A DNA stretch of 27,337 nt from a virus (Duplodnaviria; Caudoviricetes), in the IMG/VR virus record IMGVR_UViG_3300024051_000012, positions 1 to 27,337 of that record; one strand, 5' to 3'. Positions 1,397 through 26,881 of this stretch are shown one piece after another. Position numbers and translations under genes: made by a program. Every line of letters begins with the position of its first letter. The stretch's first letter is position 1. Under the pieces are notes generated by a model. The model worked only from the letters and a program-made list of their open reading frames with translations. It was not told where the DNA came from and made no database searches.

Positions 1397-1531
1397 CTAG
1401 GTCGGGTAGAGGCGTCCTGTGGTGGACGCAGGGGTGCTGTTGTGTGCGCCGTTGACGACGATGCCTGGGGTGGCGGCGAGGGTGGATGGTGTGACGCCTG
1501 GCCCGATGTTGACCCATGCGGTGATGGCCAT
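1397..1531 (-). CDS. 44-aa small protein MAITAWVNIGPG...TGRLYPT (absent from the ORF track)
   Basis: ATG overlaps the upstream stop (TAATG coupling); ORF ends just before the terminator. Confidence 0.65.
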   Translation of the reverse strand: MAITAWVNIGPGVTPSTLAATPGIVVNGAHNSTPASTTGRLYPT

Positions 1532-2484
1532 TAGACGGCCCACGCAATCGCTGGGAGGCAGCGGTTGGAAATCGTGTTGTTGGCTGATGCGCCTACCGCA
1601 ATCACGCCCGGGCCGGTGCTGCCGCTACTGATTGTCGGGAAGGCACGATAGGTGCGGGCTTCGCCGTTGATGGTCGCGACCTGGATGACGGATGTGGCTC
1701 CCGCGTCGCCTGGATGGACGACGACCATGCTGTTCAGGACGAATGGCTCCACGCCGGGAGCCGCGCAGGGGATGGGGTACACGGGGGCCGTGGTGCCGTC
1801 CTCTGACAGGGTGGAGCCTGTGGAGGCGTTGTTGCCGTTGACCGCATAGGGCAGCATGACGGGGGCGTAGACGTTCTGCGCGGACTTCGCAGAGCCGCTG
1901 GTTCCATCATGCCCGATCACGTGGAAGAAGCTCTGTCCGCCGAATCCAGCGATGACGAGCGCGTCGCCTCGGTAGGTGCCGTCGGTGTTGCAGGCGCGGG
2001 CTATGGTGAAGCCGCCGAGGTGGCCAGCGAGGTTGCCGGTCGCTGGCCACAAGGCGATGCTGAATGATGATCCGTCGCCGGACGCGTAGGAGGGGTATTC
2101 GGTCGAGGATGCGGTGGCTGGCGTCGGTGAGGCGACGGTTGCGGCCAGGAGGGTGTTGCCGGTGATGGTGCCCGCCCCGTCACTGGCGGTGCCGACCGTG
2201 AGGCGGAAGTCCGCGCGACCGGCGGAGTTTCCCGTCCCGTAGTCGATGCGGAAGAAGATCGGGTGTGTTGACTGGAGGGCGTCGTTGAAACGCCACACCT
2301 CATAGTTCGTCCACGTGTTGATTCCGGGCACGGATGCGGTGGAGATGGTCAACTGGCCGGTATCGGCTGTTTGGACTAGGCCGATGGCGGCGAGGGCGTC
2401 GTGGATGCCTTGGATCCACTTGCGCCATTCGGTCGCGGTCGCTCCCGTTTGTGCGCTCATCCACGTGAAGGTTGAGATGGTCAT
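1531..2484 (-). CDS. Minor tail / tail-fibre-associated virion protein
   Basis: GLVQTADTGQ...YEVWRFNDALQSTHPIFFRIDYGTG motif, Thr/Gly/Ser-rich, directly after the fibre gene. Confidence 0.7.
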   Translation of the reverse strand: MTISTFTWMSAQTGATATEWRKWIQGIHDALAAIGLVQTADTGQLTISTASVPGINTWTNYEVWRFNDALQSTHPIFFRIDYGTGNSAGRADFRLTVGTASDGAGTITGNTLLAATVASPTPATASSTEYPSYASGDGSSFSIALWPATGNLAGHLGGFTIARACNTDGTYRGDALVIAGFGGQSFFHVIGHDGTSGSAKSAQNVYAPVMLPYAVNGNNASTGSTLSEDGTTAPVYPIPCAAPGVEPFVLNSMVVVHPGDAGATSVIQVATINGEARTYRAFPTISSGSTGPGVIAVGASANNTISNRCLPAIAWAV

Positions 2485-2487
2485 GGT

Positions 2488-3525
2488 TTACGCCTCCCGA
2501 AGTTGCATGGTGATGGTGGTCGCGTCGCCATCAACGCTGTAATACAGGTCTGTTTCGCCCACGGCTCGGACGTCGTGAATGGGTGCACCGTCATCAGTGG
2601 TCGCGTCGGGTGCGACGTACTCGTACACCAGGTCCGCGCCGCCCGTGTAGGGGGTGGTGATGGGGCGGTCGGCGTCGGCGGTGCGGCCATCAGCGGTGCG
2701 ATACACGCGGAATCGGCACGGGCCGCTGTAGGTGATGGTGTAGATGACGTACTGTGCGGGGGCTTCGAACGTGCCGTCACCCATCGCGTCTGTGAGGGTG
2801 ACAGTGGTGGGGGTGGGCGGGAAGGAACTGCCGCCGCCGGTTTGGTTCACCCATTGCGTGTCGAAGTCCGCGCTGGATGCCTTCGCGAGGACTTGACCGG
2901 TGGAGCCGCCTGCGGGGACACCGGATTCCGTATCAGCCTTGCCACTGAGCGCCGCCTGGACGTCTGTCGAGATCGGCTTGTCAAGGTCTGACGTGTTGTC
3001 CACATCGCCCAGGCCGACTGCAGTCTTGGTGAGTCCCGCTGGTTGGACTGCTGTGTCCGCGAGCGCGCCCTGCGCTGCGGTTGCGAACGCCGAAGCATCC
3101 TCCGTGGCGGCGGTGCCGAGCGACGCCGCGTCGGCCTTGGCCGCGAGCGCCGAACCGAGGCCGGTCACGTCTTCGATGGTGTGTGTGTGCGCCTCGGGCG
3201 GGAACTCGGTGGGCTTGTCGGTGAGGTCGTCCCAGGACGACGCGCCGCCGCTGGCCGGGTCGGTGTATACCAGTTCACCGTCGAGGGTGGCGAGGGTCTT
3301 CCCGTCCGGCTGCGCGGCCGGGTCGGGGACGTGCGAGTCACCGTCCGCGCCGTGGAGGGAGGCGAGCCATTCGGCCTCAGTCCCGGTGAAGCCATTCTCG
3401 ACGGCGACGTCGTAGGCAGATGCGCCAGCAGCGCCAGGGTTGCCCTTGCCGCCTGCCGGGCCTTGCGCTTCGAGGACGACGGCAGGCTCAACGGCCTGCT
3501 CGCGGACAACAACGATCTCGCTCAC
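2488..3525 (-). CDS. Tail fibre-like protein with collagen and phage-tail repeat modules
   Basis: Short GXY run, SAYDVAVENGFTGTEAEWLASL, WDDLTDKPTEFPPEAHTH, VGLGDVDNTSDLDKPIST and GGSTGQVLAKAS motifs. Confidence 0.8.
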   Translation of the reverse strand: MSEIVVVREQAVEPAVVLEAQGPAGGKGNPGAAGASAYDVAVENGFTGTEAEWLASLHGADGDSHVPDPAAQPDGKTLATLDGELVYTDPASGGASSWDDLTDKPTEFPPEAHTHTIEDVTGLGSALAAKADAASLGTAATEDASAFATAAQGALADTAVQPAGLTKTAVGLGDVDNTSDLDKPISTDVQAALSGKADTESGVPAGGSTGQVLAKASSADFDTQWVNQTGGGSSFPPTPTTVTLTDAMGDGTFEAPAQYVIYTITYSGPCRFRVYRTADGRTADADRPITTPYTGGADLVYEYVAPDATTDDGAPIHDVRAVGETDLYYSVDGDATTITMQLREA

Positions 3526-3962
3526 GCGTCGCTCCTTGTCACGTCAGGCTTCACGGCGACGGGGCCTTTCGCGTAACGCGTGACCTGACCGTCTGGCGCG
3601 ACCAGCTCAAGGTCATACACGCCTGCGGACCGGTCGTTCCACGCCTCGGCCTCGGTGGTCGCGGCGGGGAGGACGAGCGTGACTGTCGAACCGGTGTGTT
3701 CCGTCCCGGCCGTGTCGGTGACCGTCACGTCGTCTTCGAACACGACGCGGGGCCCGTTCACGGTGTCGGACGTGAACTCGATCCACACCTCACCGCCGAC
3801 GCTGTCACGAATCTGTGCGCGCCCCGACCAGCCGTCCGCGGCGAGGTCGCCATAGATGGAGTGGTCGGTGAGGAATCCGTTCACGGTGTCGGCTCCCTGC
3901 GGGATGATCCACTTGCGGGTCACCTTCGCGTCGTAGCCGGCTGGGGGAATCTCGACGGTCAC
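3522..3962 (-). CDS. Ig-like fibre/baseplate-associated protein (BppU/LtfC-like)
   Basis: IPQGAD...GWSGRAQIR...GVYDLELVAPDGQVTRYAKGPV motif; GGAGG RBS; overlaps the fibre start. Confidence 0.7.
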   Translation of the reverse strand: MTVEIPPAGYDAKVTRKWIIPQGADTVNGFLTDHSIYGDLAADGWSGRAQIRDSVGGEVWIEFTSDTVNGPRVVFEDDVTVTDTAGTEHTGSTVTLVLPAATTEAEAWNDRSAGVYDLELVAPDGQVTRYAKGPVAVKPDVTRSDA

Positions 3963-13081: not shown

Positions 13082-13399
13082 ATGGGGACACTGATTGTTT
13101 TCGTTGTCGTGCTGGTCGCAGCGTTCGGCGTCATCATGGGATGCGCGCTGCTGAACCTCGAGGGCCGCGATAAGCGCGACGCCGCCACGCGAGCGGGGCT
13201 TACGACTCAGGCGGACAGTGTGCTCGACGGTCTATTCGACGGGCGGCCAGTCGTGACATTCACCGCCAGCAAAGCGACACTCGCGCGCGAAACGCTCATC
13301 GAAGGGGCTGGGATGCGCGGTTACGCGCTCACGTCAGAAACGCCGCGCCCCCAGTCCATCCGAGACGAACGCGACCTGGTGTTCACGAAAACTCAGTAG
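13082..13399 (+). CDS. Opposite-strand small membrane protein (moron-like)
   Basis: N-terminal TM helix; fills the gap between chaperone and tape measure; TAACGT -10-like box 8 nt before ATG suggests a leaderless transcript. Confidence 0.75.
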   Translation: MGTLIVFVVVLVAAFGVIMGCALLNLEGRDKRDAATRAGLTTQADSVLDGLFDGRPVVTFTASKATLARETLIEGAGMRGYALTSETPRPQSIRDERDLVFTKTQ

Positions 13400-16901: not shown

Positions 16902-17963
16902 TTACGCGACCTTCACGGACGCGACCACGAGGCCGCTAGCGCGGACCACCTTCGCGCCGTACAGGTGCAGGCCCTTGAGGGCGTCAGCGAACCGCTTTTC
17001 GGGCTGGTACGCAACGACCTTGTTGATCTGCTCCGCGTAGGAGGTGGCGATGGGAGAGCCAGCGATGGCCACCCGCTGGGCGCCGGTAAGGACGGTGTCG
17101 GTCTGCGACGCCGCAGCCGATCCGGCCTTGTCCATGGTCGCCACCGAGCCGTCCGCGTTCACCGAAGCGATCTTCGTGCTCGAGGCGATGTTGGTGCCGG
17201 TCACGGTCAGGCCGACGTCGCCCTGCGAGAACGTTCCGGGGTCGCCCGTCAGGGTCTTCGCCGTGGTCGCCACGGCGATGCTGTCGGTGATCGCGCGGGC
17301 CGCGACAGGGGCGTTGTTCGACTTGAGAATGGTGAAGCCTGCGGCCTCACCAACCACGCCGTTGCGCAGGCCGCTGGACGTGCCAGCTTCGTTGGCCTTG
17401 ATGAAACGGCTGTCGAGCAGGAGCCGACCGTAGCTGGCGGGGTCGAGTACGATCCAGCGGCCATCGGTCGGGACGTTCTGCTCGTCAAGCTTCACGCTTG
17501 CAGGCACCAGCAGGTTGTCGTAGACGTTGGATGCGGTCGTGCCGTCGATGACTCCGAGGGCCCCCGCCGCGGCACCGACCATGCGGGAAGCCACGAACTT
17601 GTCGGCGACATCCCGCAGACCAAACGCAGCGCGCTGCGTCGCCTCCGTCATGAGCCGTCCACCATCGCGCGACTGGCGACGGTCGATGTCGTCAATCTGG
17701 AAGTTGAACGCCTTCGACTGGTCGATGACGAGGGTCTGGTCCGAGTCGGTCAGCGTCTCCGGGTCGGACAGGTTGGTGTCCTTGGCGTAGTCCACGATGG
17801 TGGGGTCGGCCACCGAAGTGATGCGGACAGTGTCGCCGTAATTGGCGATTTCTCCCTCGTAGTTGCGGTTCACGCAGGGCGCACCGCCGTACACGAGAGA
17901 CTTGGAGAGGACGGACAGCAGGTTCGCGGACCAGACCTCGGGGATGAACTTGGTGATCGCCAT
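16902..17963 (-). CDS. Major capsid protein (HK97 fold, P22-coat-like family) with inserted beta-domain
   Basis: FIPEVWSANLL, VNRNYEGEI, GDTVRI, LDEQNVPTDGRW, FADALKGLHLYGAKVVR; AAGGAG RBS. Confidence 0.93.
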   Translation of the reverse strand: MAITKFIPEVWSANLLSVLSKSLVYGGAPCVNRNYEGEIANYGDTVRITSVADPTIVDYAKDTNLSDPETLTDSDQTLVIDQSKAFNFQIDDIDRRQSRDGGRLMTEATQRAAFGLRDVADKFVASRMVGAAAGALGVIDGTTASNVYDNLLVPASVKLDEQNVPTDGRWIVLDPASYGRLLLDSRFIKANEAGTSSGLRNGVVGEAAGFTILKSNNAPVAARAITDSIAVATTAKTLTGDPGTFSQGDVGLTVTGTNIASSTKIASVNADGSVATMDKAGSAAASQTDTVLTGAQRVAIAGSPIATSYAEQINKVVAYQPEKRFADALKGLHLYGAKVVRASGLVVASVKVA

Positions 17964-21234: not shown

Positions 21235-22827
21235 TCACATCACGAATGCGTATTCGTTGGTTTGGGCGCCAAGTGCGCGAACGTCTGATGCGGCCTCGTG
21301 CGCCAGCACGTCAGCCATGAGAATGTCGATCTTTTGATGCTCGGACGGCTTGCCGAGGACGTACTTGTCGCCTGCCTTCGCGACCTTGCGGGCGTTGAGG
21401 AAGTGAGTGCGCGCCGCGGTCTCATCATCATGCGTCGTGAGACCCTCTGCGCAGTCCTCTAGATAGCGCACGAGGGCCGCGAACATCTGCTGGATGCGGT
21501 TCGTGTACCACAAGATCACGCGGTCCTCGCCGAAGGCATCCGCCCACGCGTCCGCCTGCGTCTCCCAGTGGAGCGGATCGACATACAGTCGCTTCACGGT
21601 GTATCGGGCGAACATCTCGCGCACCGCTGAGTCAACCTCGCCGCGCGGAATGCGCCCCTCAGGCCACTCCGCCGGGTTCCAATAAGTCGGACGGTCATCT
21701 GGCCCATACGTCGGGGTGAAGCGATGCCCGTCGATTGTCTCTGCGCGCAGCGCCGTCCAGTCGCCAGACCGTGACCCGTCAAAGCCGAGTGTGACGGCCG
21801 TGCGGGGCTTGACCTCAACGACAGCGGCAGTGGCATCAACGAGCGGCTCGCCCATGAACGCGCCAAGCCCCTGCACGAGACGATTGCCAAAGAAGCGCTC
21901 AGCCTGCGTGGGGTCGGTCTCCACAAGCTCGGCGGCCTCGGCGTCAATGTCTCTGATGTTCACCCAGGGGGATTCCGCATACACATATGCGTGAATCTTG
22001 TGACGGTCCGCCTTGTTGCCGTAGGACAGATCGGCGGGCGGCTTGCGATAGTAGCGAAAGATGTCCTTTGCGCGAGATTCGAACGCGATCTGCGCAGCTG
22101 AGTTCTCCATGGGGTCCCACGGGTTCGTCAGCTCGAGCGACCTGCCCTGGGTGCCGGCGATGCCACGTCGAGACGTCTGCCACGCCTTGAGAATCGAGCC
22201 CGTATATAGCCCTGACTCGTCGCCGAGCAGGAACGTGAGCGGCTTGCCGAGCTTCGACTTCGCCGCCGCCGTCATGACGTCGATACGGCCATCGTTGGGT
22301 AGGCGCATGAACCCTTCGCGGACCTTCACGATGTCATCGAGGGGTCCTGATCGCACAAACTGCTGAAGCGGCGCGTAGACGTTGTCCACCTGATCCTCAG
22401 CGGTGGCCATCAGCCCGATCAGGGACTGCTCGCGCGGAACTCCCATCGCCTCGCCCGGCTCGTAGTGGTACTCCCAACCACAGAGACAACCGTGCTCCGA
22501 GCAGCGATACACCTCGCGGCCGCGAGCCCACCCGGCGAATAGCGATGGGCCGACCGCCTCGAAGAGCGTGAGAGCGGCGCCAAACGGAGACTTGCCAGAC
22601 TTCTGCGGGCCGACGATCACCGAGCGGCGATGCACGAACGGATCGTTGAGCTTAAGCGGGTTTGGCTGCGCCCCCGGGGCGATCTCGTAATGACCAATCG
22701 CGCATCTCAACTGCCAGCCGTCCATGACGAACGGCTCACCGCGGTAGACGCCAGCGGTCACGGTGCAATGCGCTGTCGCCCAGTCCGCAAACAGGTAGCC
22801 AAGCGAGGCGTTCTGATCACCTGTCAT
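21235..22827 (-). CDS. terL: Terminase large subunit
   Basis: Walker A GPQKSGKS, Walker B FLLGDESG, RNase H-like LGFDGS and KIDILMA; start placed at ATG 22827. Confidence 0.93.
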   Translation of the reverse strand: MTGDQNASLGYLFADWATAHCTVTAGVYRGEPFVMDGWQLRCAIGHYEIAPGAQPNPLKLNDPFVHRRSVIVGPQKSGKSPFGAALTLFEAVGPSLFAGWARGREVYRCSEHGCLCGWEYHYEPGEAMGVPREQSLIGLMATAEDQVDNVYAPLQQFVRSGPLDDIVKVREGFMRLPNDGRIDVMTAAAKSKLGKPLTFLLGDESGLYTGSILKAWQTSRRGIAGTQGRSLELTNPWDPMENSAAQIAFESRAKDIFRYYRKPPADLSYGNKADRHKIHAYVYAESPWVNIRDIDAEAAELVETDPTQAERFFGNRLVQGLGAFMGEPLVDATAAVVEVKPRTAVTLGFDGSRSGDWTALRAETIDGHRFTPTYGPDDRPTYWNPAEWPEGRIPRGEVDSAVREMFARYTVKRLYVDPLHWETQADAWADAFGEDRVILWYTNRIQQMFAALVRYLEDCAEGLTTHDDETAARTHFLNARKVAKAGDKYVLGKPSEHQKIDILMADVLAHEAASDVRALGAQTNEYAFVM

Positions 22828-23293
22828 CGCCAACAGCCTCGAGGCGCCGAGCGCGCTCGCGGGCATTCGGCAAACGGGCTGGCGCCTCGGTTTCGGCGCG
22901 CTTCGCGGCCACTTCGTCTGTAGCGATCTTGTAGCCGGCGCGATTCAGGGCGTCGTTACTGAGGAGGATGTCGCCCTCACGCTGGCGCAGTGCAGCCCAC
23001 AGCGAGGCGGGAGCCTCGGGGTCCTCGAGCATGGCCTTGATGCGGCACCAGTCCGCGACCTGCGGGATGACCCACGACCACTGCGGGGTTGCCCAAAGCG
23101 CCGCCTGTGGCGTTGACCACGCCCACGCCCACCAACTGAGCGATGACCCGATAGCGGGCCCCGGGTAGTCCGGCACCTCGCCCGTATATCCCTCAGCGGG
23201 GAGCGCCGTAAACGCAAGCTTGCGCATCTCCGACCTGCCGGAGCCTGGGCTAGGGGGGGGTCCTGACCTCTTCCTGGCGCCACCACTGGGCAT
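22817..23293 (-). CDS. terS: Terminase small subunit
   Basis: MPSGGARKRSGPPP N-terminus, WWAWAWSTPQAALW; AGGAGG RBS; overlaps terL start. Confidence 0.85.
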   Translation of the reverse strand: MPSGGARKRSGPPPSPGSGRSEMRKLAFTALPAEGYTGEVPDYPGPAIGSSLSWWAWAWSTPQAALWATPQWSWVIPQVADWCRIKAMLEDPEAPASLWAALRQREGDILLSNDALNRAGYKIATDEVAAKRAETEAPARLPNARERARRLEAVGDDR

Positions 23294-23384
23294 GATTACC
23301 TCCTACCCGCATTGCGCGGCTGAGAGCCGCATTGCGCAGGCTCGAGGATGCTGAAGCTGGGCGAGGTGGGTCGGTTTGAACCCT

Positions 23385-23450
23385 TCGCGCGTTTTTTTGC
23401 CCTCCCCGGCGGTCACGCGCCGAGTCAACGAGGGGCCACCCCCCGGTCCA
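23385..23450 (-). other. Putative cos/packaging initiation region
   Basis: Non-coding gap between HNH and terS with G-run, ACCGCCGGGGAGGG and a 7-nt A-tract on the minus strand. Confidence 0.55.
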
Positions 23451-23462
23451 TCTGATGGTGCG

Positions 23463-23846
23463 TCACTGCGTGGCGTTCCATCCGCCTCGCGAGGTGCGAG
23501 CGGTGCGCGCATCGTGGCAGTGCTTGCACTTGCCGCGACCGTATTGCGGATCGTTGGGGTCAAGTCCTTGCGCCTCAAGGTCGCGTCGCTCGATTGGATC
23601 GTGGTCGGCTACCACCGACCTGGCCCCACACATGCCCTCGTGATGTCCGCATTCGCCGAGGCAAACGCAGTACGGGTTCTTGGCGAGAACCTCTGCACGA
23701 AAGCTGCGGTGGCCTCGCGTTGAATAGGGGTTACCTTCGGGCCGCCTAGCCGCCTCGGCCTTGGCGGCGCATGCCGGGCATCGACCCTTGCCGTGGTGAA
23801 GATTCGGGCACCCTGGCGTGGAGCATGGGCGCATGGTCGCACTCAC
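23463..23846 (-). CDS. HNH endonuclease (terminase-associated)
   Basis: CSTPGCP...CPAC N-terminus, VADHD...GRGKCKHCHDART; GTG coupled to the upstream stop. Confidence 0.88.
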   Translation of the reverse strand: MSATMRPCSTPGCPNLHHGKGRCPACAAKAEAARRPEGNPYSTRGHRSFRAEVLAKNPYCVCLGECGHHEGMCGARSVVADHDPIERRDLEAQGLDPNDPQYGRGKCKHCHDARTARTSRGGWNATQ

Positions 23847-24469
23847 GCGCCCTCCATCCTGGCCGTCACGTGGGCGGCTATGGCGTGGCGTTGCACTGCC
23901 TCATGGCTGGACAGCCACGGGCCGTCGGGGAGGCTCTGGTGTGCTGTGCGGACCTTGACGTCTGGTGCGATGACGTCCGGGTCACCCAACATGTTGCCGT
24001 ACAGCGAGCGCTTGTCGAGCAGGGGCCTGGTCGCCACGATGTCGAGCGCCTCGAGCATCACGTCGGACCGGATCGGCATCGGCACGTGCGCCTCGTAGTC
24101 CCAGGTGGGCAGGTCCATCATGACAAGACGGTCGCGGGTGGCGAGTTTGCGGCGCGTGTAGATGCCCCGCTCGGCTCGGGTTTCGAGTTTCCCGATGGCC
24201 CACATGACCGGCTGAGCGTCGTCGAGCCAGTAGATGTCGTCGGCGGACCAGATGAAGTGCTCGAATGTCTCGCACGCGAGCCGCATCGCGTTGTTGGTGT
24301 TGACGAAGACGTCATGGCCTTGCGCCATCGGCAGGTGCTGGTCAGCGAGGCCGAGGTCGTGGCCAATGGTTGCGACTTGGTAGTCCGTGTGGTGGTGGAT
24401 GGATGCTATGGCGAGCGCCAGGGTGTCATTACGCGGCGACGCGGCTACGGGGATTACCACGACTGCCAT
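23843..24469 (-). CDS. Phage GT-A/Stealth-like glycosyl- or phosphotransferase-like protein (208 aa)
   Basis: FIWSADDIYW (DD motif), YEAHVPMPI, KRSLYGN, DVKV; true start ATG 24469 just after the upstream stop. Confidence 0.65.
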   Translation of the reverse strand: MAVVVIPVAASPRNDTLALAIASIHHHTDYQVATIGHDLGLADQHLPMAQGHDVFVNTNNAMRLACETFEHFIWSADDIYWLDDAQPVMWAIGKLETRAERGIYTRRKLATRDRLVMMDLPTWDYEAHVPMPIRSDVMLEALDIVATRPLLDKRSLYGNMLGDPDVIAPDVKVRTAHQSLPDGPWLSSHEAVQRHAIAAHVTARMEGA

Positions 24470-24471
24470 GG

Positions 24472-25035
24472 CTATGACCCGAGGCGCTCCTGCACGATCC
24501 GCGTCCATCCGATGCTGTCGAGGTGCGCCTTCGCCTCGCGGGTGCCTTGGTTGGTGGAGATCCCGAACCGCACACGGGTGCCAATGTTTTCCAACGGCAT
24601 CCACGTGACGCCGGTGCGCTTCACGGCGAGCCACAGGGCGCTGTGGTCTCCACCTTCCCAGTAGGCGAGGATGTCGATCCAGGCGCGCAAGAACTCGCGG
24701 GTGGAGTGCGTGTTGGGCAGATAGTGCACGTGTCCGTATGGGCGACCGTTGGGCTTGGCTGCCCACCCGATCACGTCTGTCTGCGGGTAGTCCCACGCCT
24801 TGAGGATGGTGCTGTCCACATCGACGTACACCAGGTTCTCGCCGTGCTTGTCGAGTTGTTCGAGCATGAACTTGGGCTTTCCGCGCGTGATGGCGAGGTA
24901 GTCGTCACCGTAGGAGCGCTTCACGATGCTCGCAGGCATCCCGACGGCTTTGCATTCGGCGCGCAGACGCTTCGCGTGCTCGGCATACTCGCCGTGTGTC
25001 AGCGGCGTGTCCTGGTAGAACGCGACGAGCTTCAT
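24472..25035 (-). CDS. Nucleotide-diphospho-sugar transferase (GT-A, DxD)
   Basis: KPKFMLEQLDK...LVYVDVDSTI, then FLRAW...DHSAL; ATGA-coupled. Confidence 0.8.
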   Translation of the reverse strand: MKLVAFYQDTPLTHGEYAEHAKRLRAECKAVGMPASIVKRSYGDDYLAITRGKPKFMLEQLDKHGENLVYVDVDSTILKAWDYPQTDVIGWAAKPNGRPYGHVHYLPNTHSTREFLRAWIDILAYWEGGDHSALWLAVKRTGVTWMPLENIGTRVRFGISTNQGTREAKAHLDSIGWTRIVQERLGS

Positions 25036-25682
25036 AGGTCTGAGATTCCTTCCAGGAGGTCATGCTGTATGGCCTCAATGGGGCGCGTCATGGAGGTAGC
25101 GAAGTCGGTCCATTTCGTGTCGCCGCCGATGACCTCGGCGCAGTACAGGCGCATGAACGGTATGCCGTATGACGCTGCGACGATGCATCCGTGGAGCGAC
25201 GATGAGACGACCGCTTCGCATTCGGCGATCTGGCGACACACATCCTCGGGCTCTTGGCGTGTGTCAATCTCGAACGCGCCGAACGGCGTTGGCCGCATGT
25301 CCACGTAGTGCCGCACGAATCCGAGCCGGTGCTTCTTGTGTCCCGCCGCCCAGAAGTGTGATGCCAGCAGGCCAGGATCGCCGAGTGGCACGTTGACGCC
25401 GAGCATGTCGGCGGTGAGGTGGCCGCGCACTGCTCGCACGTCGAGCGCTGGCAGCTTCTGCGGGGGATCTTTGTGGTAGCCAGTGCCCCAGACGATCGTG
25501 CCAGGCCGGAGCGGTTCGAGGGCGTGCTTTTGGAGGATGGAGCCGGTCGTGAGTATCTCGGCCTTACCGAAGCGAACCCATTCTGTTGTGTGGCCGAGGC
25601 GTTCGAGGAATATGTGACCGAGTTCGTCCCCGAAGTTGGTGAAGCGGCGGGGGCGCGCCCACCAGGTCCGTAGGTGCGCCAC
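25032..25682 (-). CDS. Polysaccharide pyruvyl transferase family protein (ExoV-like)
   Basis: NFGDEL, GSIL, VWGTG, AVRGHLT, LGDPGLL, VVSSSLHGCIVAASYGIP; GGGAGG RBS before GTG 25682. Confidence 0.88.
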   Translation of the reverse strand: MAHLRTWWARPRRFTNFGDELGHIFLERLGHTTEWVRFGKAEILTTGSILQKHALEPLRPGTIVWGTGYHKDPPQKLPALDVRAVRGHLTADMLGVNVPLGDPGLLASHFWAAGHKKHRLGFVRHYVDMRPTPFGAFEIDTRQEPEDVCRQIAECEAVVSSSLHGCIVAASYGIPFMRLYCAEVIGGDTKWTDFATSMTRPIEAIQHDLLEGISDL

Positions 25683-25854: not shown

Positions 25855-25882
25855 GAAAGCCCCGTCCAAAGACTGGGGCTTC
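25855..25882 (-). terminator. Terminator just downstream of the late promoter
   Basis: GAAGCCCC-a-GTC tttg GAC-GGGGCTTTC on the minus strand. Confidence 0.7.
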
Positions 25883-25909: not shown

Positions 25910-25938
25910 AGAGTGCCAACATGCATGGTGATTGTCAA
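25910..25938 (-). promoter_or_regulatory. Late promoter: -35 TTGACA, 17-nt spacer, -10 CACTCT
   Basis: Perfect -35 at 25933-25938, 17-nt spacer, TG-extended CANNNT -10 at 25910-25915. Confidence 0.75.
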
Positions 25939-26090
25939 CCGACACGCCGCGCGAGCCATTCCATGATCTGCCTGAGACGGACGGCTTCGACAAGCGCGGC
26001 GCACAGTTCATCCACCGCCTCGCGTAGCGTTCCCAGCTTGCATGATGTGCATTGGCCACATCGACATGGCCTCCCATCGTGCCATGTCAT
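25935..26090 (-). CDS. 51-aa Cys-rich hypothetical protein
   Basis: ATGA-coupled to the upstream gene; CRCGQCTSC cluster then an amphipathic helix. Confidence 0.55.
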   Translation of the reverse strand: MTWHDGRPCRCGQCTSCKLGTLREAVDELCAALVEAVRLRQIMEWLARRVG

Positions 26091-26881
26091 GCCGCGACCT
26101 CGATCCCCGCGAGTTCCACCGCATCCGCGAAGCGGAACATTTGCGGATTGCGCAGCACAGGCACGAGGCGACCGCGCGCGATCCATGCGTCAATAGTGCC
26201 GCGTGGAGTCTTCCCGCCGAGCAGGCGTAGGGCTGGCCCGATTTCGGAACGCTTCATGAGCCTGGCCGCGAACGCGCTCGCTAACTGGTCCCGCACATCC
26301 GCCAGGTTGGCTTCCTGCTCGCACTGGTCGCACTTGGCCTTCTCGGCGCCAGCCCTGAGCCACAGGTCTCCACCGCAGGCTTCGAGGCATGGCCCCATGA
26401 AGCGTGGTGGCAGGGGCTGAAGTACGAGGTTGCGGGTTTTGTCGAGGTAGATCATCGCGTCGTCGCAGAAGTCGAGGGCGATCTGACGGTTCTGGCGGAC
26501 GGTGTTGCCGTCGTCGTCGCGCACGGGCTTGCCTCGGTAGCCCTTGTCAAGCACTTTCGCGTTGCGCGTGTCGTCTTCGCTTGTCCAGTGGCCGTGGCGT
26601 TTCGCGATGAGACGCAGCATCCCTTCGAGGGTGTCTGGTGCGCGTTTCACGTCGTGTGTTTCCATGAGTAGGCAGGTGATGTAGAACTCGGCTGTTTGCT
26701 CAAGGTCGTACAGCAGGTCGGATGCCACGAGGTCGATGGGGGGCTTCGATTGGGGCATGACGCGTGATGGTTCACCCTTGCCGCGTCGTGGCTCAAGGTA
26801 GAGCCGGATGGTGGGCACGAGACGTGCGAGAGTACGCCAGTTTTCGGCGGCTTCGAGGGCGGTGGTGGTGTCGATCGTCAC
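26087..26881 (-). CDS. Zn-ribbon + C-terminal HTH protein; probable late-gene regulator
   Basis: GPCLEACGGDL...CDQC and TIDAWIARGRL...FRFADAVEL; sits just upstream of the late promoter; GTGA-coupled start. Confidence 0.8.
   Translation of the reverse strand: MTIDTTTALEAAENWRTLARLVPTIRLYLEPRRGKGEPSRVMPQSKPPIDLVASDLLYDLEQTAEFYITCLLMETHDVKRAPDTLEGMLRLIAKRHGHWTSEDDTRNAKVLDKGYRGKPVRDDDGNTVRQNRQIALDFCDDAMIYLDKTRNLVLQPLPPRFMGPCLEACGGDLWLRAGAEKAKCDQCEQEANLADVRDQLASAFAARLMKRSEIGPALRLLGGKTPRGTIDAWIARGRLVPVLRNPQMFRFADAVELAGIEVAA

Follow-up and report, generated by a model that had tools for sequence, protein, structure and literature searches.

The cassette and its genomic setting

The window analyzed here, meaning the whole stretch of DNA studied, is one contig of 27,337 bp (IMG/VR record IMGVR_UViG_3300024051_000012) with a GC content of ~65%. 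Annotation with Pfam and PHROG identified it as the part of a siphophage genome devoted to morphogenesis and lysis, encoded on the minus strand, and the named minus-strand genes are those for an HNH endonuclease, the small and large terminase subunits (terS and terL), portal, protease, scaffold, capsid, adaptor, tail tube, tape measure, endolysin, and holin. Three open reading frames (ORF1, ORF2, and ORF3) lie immediately ahead of the HNH gene and form a cassette predicted to act in glycan synthesis. The cassette and the packaging genes that follow it are listed below.

25032..25682, minus strand: ORF1, 216 amino acids, GTG start with GGGAGG upstream; predicted ketal pyruvyltransferase with a compact fold resembling that of glycosyltransferases (GT) of class B (GT-B)
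24472..25035, minus strand: ORF2, 187 amino acids; predicted sugar transferase of the GT-A class, close to GT77 (PF03407) and GT34
23843..24469, minus strand: ORF3, 208 amino acids; predicted minimal Stealth-like sugar-1-phosphotransferase
23463..23846, minus strand: HNH endonuclease gene (phrog_144, E 1.2e-10), coupled to ORF3
22817-23293, minus strand: terS (PF25673, match below the cut-off)
21235-22866, minus strand: terL (phrog_19179)

A preliminary description of this DNA had proposed that the three genes at 23843..25682 are tightly coupled to one another and to the HNH gene, and this was borne out. ORF1 and ORF2 overlap by 4 nt (ATGA), ORF2 and ORF3 are separated by 2 nt, and the ORF3 stop codon overlaps the GTG start of the HNH gene at 23846 by 4 nt (GTGA), with an alternative HNH ATG at 23834. 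The GC content at third codon positions is 0.77 for ORF1, 0.86 for ORF2, and 0.85 for ORF3, the called genes spanning 0.70-0.93. Full-length homologues at E<=0.001, with the query counted, numbered 2177 for ORF1, 11 for ORF2, and 30 for ORF3. A 317-amino-acid frame at 23843-24796 was rejected as a form of ORF3 extended across ORF2 to a spurious upstream start, the homologues beginning at the position of the 208-residue protein.

The cassette had also been described as showing no clear transmembrane helix or signal peptide and no GtrABC-type flippase or membrane transferase, and the present results are compatible with this. In a hydropathy scan, which differs from a signal-peptide predictor, the maximum over 19 residues was 1.31 for ORF1, 0.61 for ORF2, and 1.28 for ORF3, compared with 2.68 for the holin. 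Among the 33 open reading frames of the window, Pfam and PHROG named neither a Gtr-type flippase nor a membrane transferase. The same holds for integrase and replication genes, so the contig is a partial genome, a scope that applies to every absence from the window reported here. The host is probably actinobacterial, since the window terminase is ~51% identical to terminases of Arthrobacter and Gordonia phages.

Three features upstream of ORF1 bear on transcription.

25910..25938, minus strand: candidate promoter TTGACA-N17-CACTCT, with an upstream extended -10 TG, from a relaxed pattern scan
25855..25882, minus strand: putative regulatory element, a GC-rich inverted repeat 3' of the candidate promoter, read from the sequence
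26087..26881, minus strand: upstream gene, phrog_908 (function unassigned), E 1.2e-19

It is plausible that the cassette comprises the first genes behind a late promoter, an arrangement compatible with the candidate at 25938-25910. The standard promoter scan returned 0 promoters against 0.9 expected, and the relaxed pattern was applied without a chance control. The inverted repeat, absent from the terminator scan output, is a possible terminator or antitermination site. The product of the upstream gene has what we take to be Cys-rich and C-terminal helix-turn-helix-like segments, and the gene is a possible late-gene regulator. An order of gene, 200-700-bp gap, and glycan genes recurs in three related loci (L084, L089, and L093), the likeness being one of layout. 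At the cassette's opposite end, the gap between the HNH gene and terS (23294-23462) contains G-runs, an A7 run, and repeated GCGCAATGCGG. This gap likely holds the packaging site, in which case the cassette would, as in phage Che8, lie at the right-hand end of the genome once packaged.

Predicted activities of the three enzymes

On the evidence of Pfam, motifs, and fold, ORF1 is taken as a predicted ketal pyruvyltransferase, the assignment already made in the preliminary description. ORF1 matched PF04230 with 46 bits (cut-off 25.3, E 8.5e-12). Validated pyruvyltransferases share an NxGD motif, an RxxxS/T motif, and a His, represented in WbbZ by N29-G31-D32, R121, and H226 (Kelly et al., PMC10629545). 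All three are present in ORF1 as N16-F-G18-D19, R86-G-H-L-T90, and H164, matched by pattern and order rather than by superposition. An alignment of 61 sequences showed no variation at N16, G18, D19, R86, H164, or R178. In Pvg1p, R337 is the second arginine that binds phosphoenolpyruvate (PEP). Pvg1p also requires Asp106, which presumably holds the matching position, for activity (PMC4872226).

The AlphaFold2 (AF2) model of ORF1 had a mean predicted local distance difference test (pLDDT) score of 96.4, and Foldseek ranks 1-3 were held by Pvg1p and WbbZ. VIA-align gave a Z score of 11.8 to 6x1l, with a root-mean-square deviation (rmsd) of 3.6 over 183 aligned residues, and 10.1 to 5ax7 (rmsd 3.9, 183 aligned), the next row scoring 8.5. 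These two best matches are the two solved pyruvyltransferases, WbbZ and Pvg1p. ORF1 shares the three motifs and a two-domain GT-B-like fold with WbbZ, Pvg1p, CsaB, WcfO, and phage WbbZ-Cv (PMC10629545, PMC4872226); it differs from known ketal pyruvyltransferases in being shorter, in sharing only 10-14% identity, and in its linkage with packaging genes instead of O-antigen or wall loci. The CsaB equivalog TIGR03609 scored 21.3 bits against the 213.1 required.

ORF1 could instead be a plain GT-B glycosyltransferase or some other transferase, in which case a virion glycan would be unpyruvylated. The Pfam match spans residues 130-179 only, the fold matches are of low identity, GT-B enzymes follow in the fold list at Z 7-8.5, and one phage relative is annotated 'galactosyl transferase'. 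These points are outweighed by the occurrence of the three motifs both in ORF1 and in 74 of its 79 viral relatives, a count that is biased for the His motif, which served as a search pattern, and by the identity of the two best folds, so we regard this explanation as very unlikely.

ORF2 is likely a GT-A sugar transferase with a DxD motif, near GT77 and GT34. D72-V73-D74, K53, and G129-D130-H131 are invariant in 11 sequences, which upholds the earlier call of a DxD sugar transferase. No Pfam family matched ORF2 itself. In the ESM Atlas it lies amid mostly viral clusters near PF03407 (GT77-type) and GT34, its neighbours carrying PF03407 in 17-25% of members by features, and the structure row that qualified for naming gave a template modelling (TM) score of 0.77 to a PF03407 cluster, both sides being predicted models. 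One viral relative (L083) matches PF03407 directly (E 3.2e-5, 24.4 bits against a cut-off of 22). No match to ORF2 was found in the cultured-phage collection, nor in viral contigs by pattern scan. Profile searches of the PDB with the alignments of all three proteins returned nothing significant, the best relevant row being the GT77 enzyme 6mw5 (E 0.34).

The third protein had been described as a second GT-A or Stealth-like protein. The Stealth-like half of that description stood and the plain GT-A half did not, ORF3 being a predicted Stealth-type sugar-1-phosphotransferase; its product would, as a consequence, contain phosphate. The AF2 model (pLDDT 94.6) had CpsY at Foldseek rank 1, and the top four VIA rows were three GNPTAB structures and CpsY, with Z 13.6-14.9 and rmsd 3.2-3.5 over 191-198 aligned residues; the next row, a glycosyltransferase, scored 11.2. 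HHalign aligned ORF3 to two full bacterial Stealth proteins (probability 93.9, E 1.5e-7), placing A76-D77-D78 on their NDD motif and H128 on the histidine of their HTP motif. GNPTAB has strictly conserved Asp408, His956, and Arg986, and its residues at the positions thus aligned take part in metal and ribose binding and serve as base (PMC9388126). All 128 rows of the family keep D77, D78, H128, P130, R154, and S187 of ORF3, and R154, which falls outside the aligned stretch, may be the equivalent of Arg986.

ORF3 shares with GNPTAB and CpsY the fold and probably the Asp-Asp pair and the position of the catalytic His, and differs from them as a stand-alone 208-residue core from a mostly viral family, with Ala at the Asn406 position and no Pfam Stealth match. 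Searches for Stealth CR1-CR4 gave 0 families on ORF3 at E<=0.05, while Stealth_CR2 matched 19 of 30 scanned ORF3 relatives at E<=0.001, all below the cut-off. ORF3 belongs to phrog_7999, whose function is unassigned, and its family comprises 2307 clusters at 50% identity (E<=0.001), mostly viral in the ESM Atlas.

Genomic neighbourhoods of related genes

A scan of viral contigs gave 186 ORF1 relatives among 210 pattern matches. From these, 80 loci were examined, 79 of them with a usable frame, and sorted into 31 lineages at 55% identity. Within 1.5 kb of the ORF1 relative, a GT2/GT7C-like gene or fusion was present in 46 of the 79 loci (14 of the 31 lineages), a count that is descriptive since the profile was built from the same loci; a gp110-like gene was present in 18 (three lineages), a Stealth-like gene in nine (six lineages), and an ORF2-like gene in nine (five lineages).

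The names gp108 to gp110 refer to Che8, where gp111, HNH, and the end of the genome directly follow these genes, so that Che8 and the window each have three coupled soluble glycan genes in the same slot. Che8 gp110 and Corndog gp38 have been described as enzymes that capsid glycosylation cannot do without (PMC12363180), and the virion glycosylation of mycobacteriophages is covered also in PMC12619734, PMC13445384, PMC12582341, and PMC11256854. ORF1 relatives often adjoin homologues of gp110 and gp109. Direct BLAST matched Che8 gp109 in 13 loci and Corndog gp37 in 19, including Tunturi_5, in which gp300 (L002:7962-9700), the ORF1 relative annotated as a galactosyl transferase, is followed by a Che8 gp109-like gene. 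The window differs from Che8 and Corndog (gp35-38) in having the pyruvyltransferase, GT77-like, and Stealth-like genes instead of any gp108-, gp109-, or gp110-like gene.

The exact trio of ORF1, ORF2, and ORF3 was absent from all other loci fetched, and the third gene varies among relatives that have both ORF1 and ORF2. In the nearest of these, L089, it is a gp110 homologue (38% identity over 193 residues, E 8e-34), and in L090 it is another gene. In a quick tree, built from rows dereplicated at 70% identity and without a rooting test, L004, with an ORF1 relative followed by a gp110-like gene, was sister to L033, with an ORF1 relative followed by a Stealth-like gene and then head closure and tail terminator genes; both lie near the window. 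The order in L084 is GT, GT4, Stealth-like, HNH, and terL, and a Glycomyces prophage (L093) has GT32-like, ORF1-related, and GT2/7C-like genes before terS and terL. Among other viral loci, pyruvyltransferase genes are paired with NeuB and cytidylyltransferase, LicD, GT10 fucosyltransferase, deacetylase, or UDP-sugar dehydrogenase genes (L056, L058, L063, and L163), and L056, L080, and L081 each have two pyruvyltransferase genes.

The gene directly upstream of a gp110-like gene was an ORF1 relative in five of 13 loci and a Methyltransf_24-type gene in three, in a set that is biased because it was found with a query from a pyruvyltransferase locus. Pyruvyltransferase and methyltransferase genes alternate before the gp110-like gene within one clade of ~33-kb phages (L253-L265), and the Methyltransf_24 family occurs also in Che8 gp108 and Corndog gp35. 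The alternation of the two gene types in this position suggests exchangeable caps.

Stealth-like genes were also found in mycobacteriophages and in a Streptomyces phage. Such a gene lies near the left end in 12 mycobacteriophage records; in Boilgate (gp3, L250:602-1288) and Cheetobro (gp6, L249:1286-1972; HHalign probability 98.2) it is unannotated and stands just before the terminase gene. None of the 84 genes of the whole Boilgate genome is annotated as a glycosyltransferase and profiles found none, the only profile match being gp84, a Methyltransf_24-type gene across the genome end. In Streptomyces phage TurkishDelight (L001:9113-12696), the major tail gene is flanked on one side by gp20, a double GT4 gene, and on the other by the Stealth-like gp22, which lies between major tail and head-tail adaptor genes.

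The glycan cassette is accessory. Glycan families were found in 0 of 80 loci retrieved by capsid similarity, 25 of which reach 7.8 kb upstream.

Candidate acceptor and competing readings

The reading that we favour, with a probability of roughly 55%, is that the cassette builds a pyruvate-capped, phosphate-containing glycan on the virion of the phage itself. The predicted chemistry of the enzymes is well supported, and the virion is a target that we infer by reasoning from the neighbourhoods. A pyruvate-capped virion glycan had been put forward in the preliminary description; the gp110 and gp109 neighbours and the slot shared with Che8 speak for it, and the window's lack of a gp110-like gene speaks against it. 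All steps would take place in the cytoplasm during assembly, assuming co-expression with the packaging genes, and would yield a short glycan with a negative charge. The donors would be nucleotide sugars of the host, as the window contains no sugar-synthesis gene. ORF3 would transfer a sugar-1-phosphate, ORF2, the DxD enzyme, would extend it with a further sugar, and ORF1 would cap the glycan with a pyruvate ketal from PEP. In the most likely order, which carries about half of the weight given to the favoured reading, ORF3 would take the part that gp110 has in Che8 and initiate, joining the sugar to a structural protein by a phosphodiester at Ser/Thr. Alternatively, the host might supply a priming enzyme, or such an enzyme might be encoded where the genome is unsequenced.

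A broader proposal, in which the minimal Stealth family replaces the gp110-type priming enzyme and phosphoglycosylates virion Ser/Thr directly, with phages swapping pyruvate and methyl caps, is tentative and, on balance, doubtful. Direct priming by ORF3 is suggested by the replacement within the slot, the apparent exclusion of gp110, and the stand-alone Boilgate case, each of which is weak by itself.

Several points weigh against the virion as acceptor. Che8-type glycans are reported to sit at C-termini (PMC12619734), and the major capsid and tail tube proteins of the window have no Ser/Thr-rich C-terminal tail. The initiating step of the known system is missing, as BLAST and profile searches of the window turned up no gp110-like gene. 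To our knowledge, no Stealth enzyme uses a protein hydroxyl as its direct acceptor. The acceptor of GNPTAB is mannose (PMC9388126). Residue 76 of ORF3, at the Asn406 position, is Ala, whereas 106 of 128 relatives carry Asn there. The exclusion of gp110-like by Stealth-like genes is weak: the two occurred together in 0 of 79 loci, where ~2 co-occurrences were expected, and 16 of the 18 gp110 loci belong to one lineage. The closeness of morphogenesis genes counts for the virion: 14 of 31 lineages had a head, tail, or packaging gene within 3 kb and 20 of 31 had one within 5 kb, while DNA-metabolism genes lay within 3 kb in five of 31. These counts, however, have no baseline and use labels limited to the scanned genes. 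Finally, the only biochemically tested phage pyruvyltransferase, WbbZ, modifies the host O1 antigen in vitro (PMC10629545), and close matches in bacterial genomes are found at wall-polymer loci, as set out below.

The major capsid protein (16902-17963, 353 amino acids) has a Ser/Thr-rich insertion of ~70 residues near residues 220-295, and its relatives fall into length classes of 350-356 and 280-292 amino acids. The insertion is possibly a surface domain and candidate glycan acceptor. Only one of the 25 capsid loci reaching far enough upstream for comparison with the cassette has it. Two further observations concern other parts of the window. Tail-fibre-like genes (146, 345, 317, and 44 amino acids) lie behind the lysis genes at 1397-3962, and the 317-residue protein is 21% Ser/Thr with no family match. 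On the plus strand at 13082-13399, counter to the operon and between the tail chaperone genes and the tape measure gene, is a 105-amino-acid open reading frame with a hydrophobic N terminus.

The wall-polymer relatives raise the possibility that the cassette modifies a host wall glycopolymer on its cytoplasmic lipid-linked precursor and so masks a receptor, either as lysogenic conversion or as late superinfection exclusion. A single-protein scan of bacterial genomes gave 0 matches and an alignment scan gave 42 loci, of which the six closest (42-48% identity) are actinobacterial. Four of these six matches lie in Streptomyces wall-polymer loci of the teichoic type, which hold TarS-type GT2, IspD-like, glycerophosphotransferase, or full Stealth genes, one match adjoining two full-length Stealth genes; of the other two, one stands alone and one is in a prophage. 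Actinobacterial wall polymers do carry pyruvate ketals (PMC6801904), and wall modification is compatible with the lack of membrane proteins because the phage-encoded WbbYZ enzymes, which are soluble, convert O-antigen although no Gtr flippase is involved (PMC10629545). Set against this, the window genes are coupled to HNH and terminase genes on the structural strand rather than forming a separate moron, and the nearest relatives of known context adjoin gp110 homologues. In the quick tree, the Streptomycetaceae rows form one small group of seven (support 86) inside a mostly viral clade of 37 rows (support 99), in which the remaining rows, where their context is known, belong to phages or phage-like elements. 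Wall modification is an unlikely explanation, although it is the main competitor of the favoured reading.

The Ala in ORF3 for the usual Asn, the varying third genes of L089 and L090, and the uniqueness of the trio among the fetched loci would also fit a cassette that is incomplete or partly active, a mosaic of exchanged genes that no longer forms one pathway. Since all three frames are intact and coupled and keep their invariant residues, and since the ORF1-Stealth pair recurs in six of 31 lineages and the ORF1-ORF2 pair in five of 31, this reading seems distinctly improbable.

That the enzymes hypermodify the DNA of the phage, adding a pyruvylated sugar to it ahead of packaging, is the least probable of the explanations weighed. 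Phage GT-A enzymes do glycosylate DNA, some of them encoded near terminase genes (bioRxiv 10.1101/2023.12.21.572611), and the early region of the window genome is missing. DNA glycosylation is tied to clustered 5mYOX or ThyS-like genes in that source, and neither was named among the 33 open reading frames of the window or in 134 Pfam-scanned neighbours, with the exception of a weak TET-associated GT match below the cut-off in L007. The terms 'pyruv' and 'Stealth' occur nowhere in the text of the same preprint.

The favoured reading of a pyruvate-capped virion glycan has a precedent in Mimivirus, the fibrils of which carry 4,6-pyruvylated GlcNAc, with L143 as candidate pyruvyltransferase (PMC10117803). 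In both cases a putative virus-encoded pyruvyltransferase lies in a glycan gene cluster, and in Mimivirus the pyruvate is on a virion glycan. Mimivirus differs as a giant eukaryotic virus with its own sugar-synthesis genes, and no Stealth step is described in the available part of that source (PMC10117803). Lak phages have a core pyruvyltransferase-like protein (PMC8346664), and the accessible part of PMC9703825 concerns host CsaB only. The novelty claimed in the preliminary description, that no pyruvylated phage virion glycan had been described, is narrower than stated, given the Mimivirus glycan, phage WbbZ, and the Lak protein; it stands for bacteriophages, in that the literature searched (titles and the starts of abstracts, with most subscription papers falling outside) yielded no pyruvylated or phosphoglycosylated bacteriophage virion.

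Cultured phages allow direct tests, in Boilgate gp3 and Cheetobro gp6 (Mycobacterium smegmatis) for the Stealth step and in Tunturi_5 gp300 for the pyruvate step. If the favoured reading is correct, it would give a function to PHROG 7999 and to a large unnamed Stealth-like family. Phages across many viral lineages would then carry a modular anionic glycan code of pyruvate, phosphate, and methyl groups that goes beyond the glycans known from a few mycobacteriophages, with a bearing on adsorption, on binding to soil and mucus, and on antibody recognition in phage therapy.

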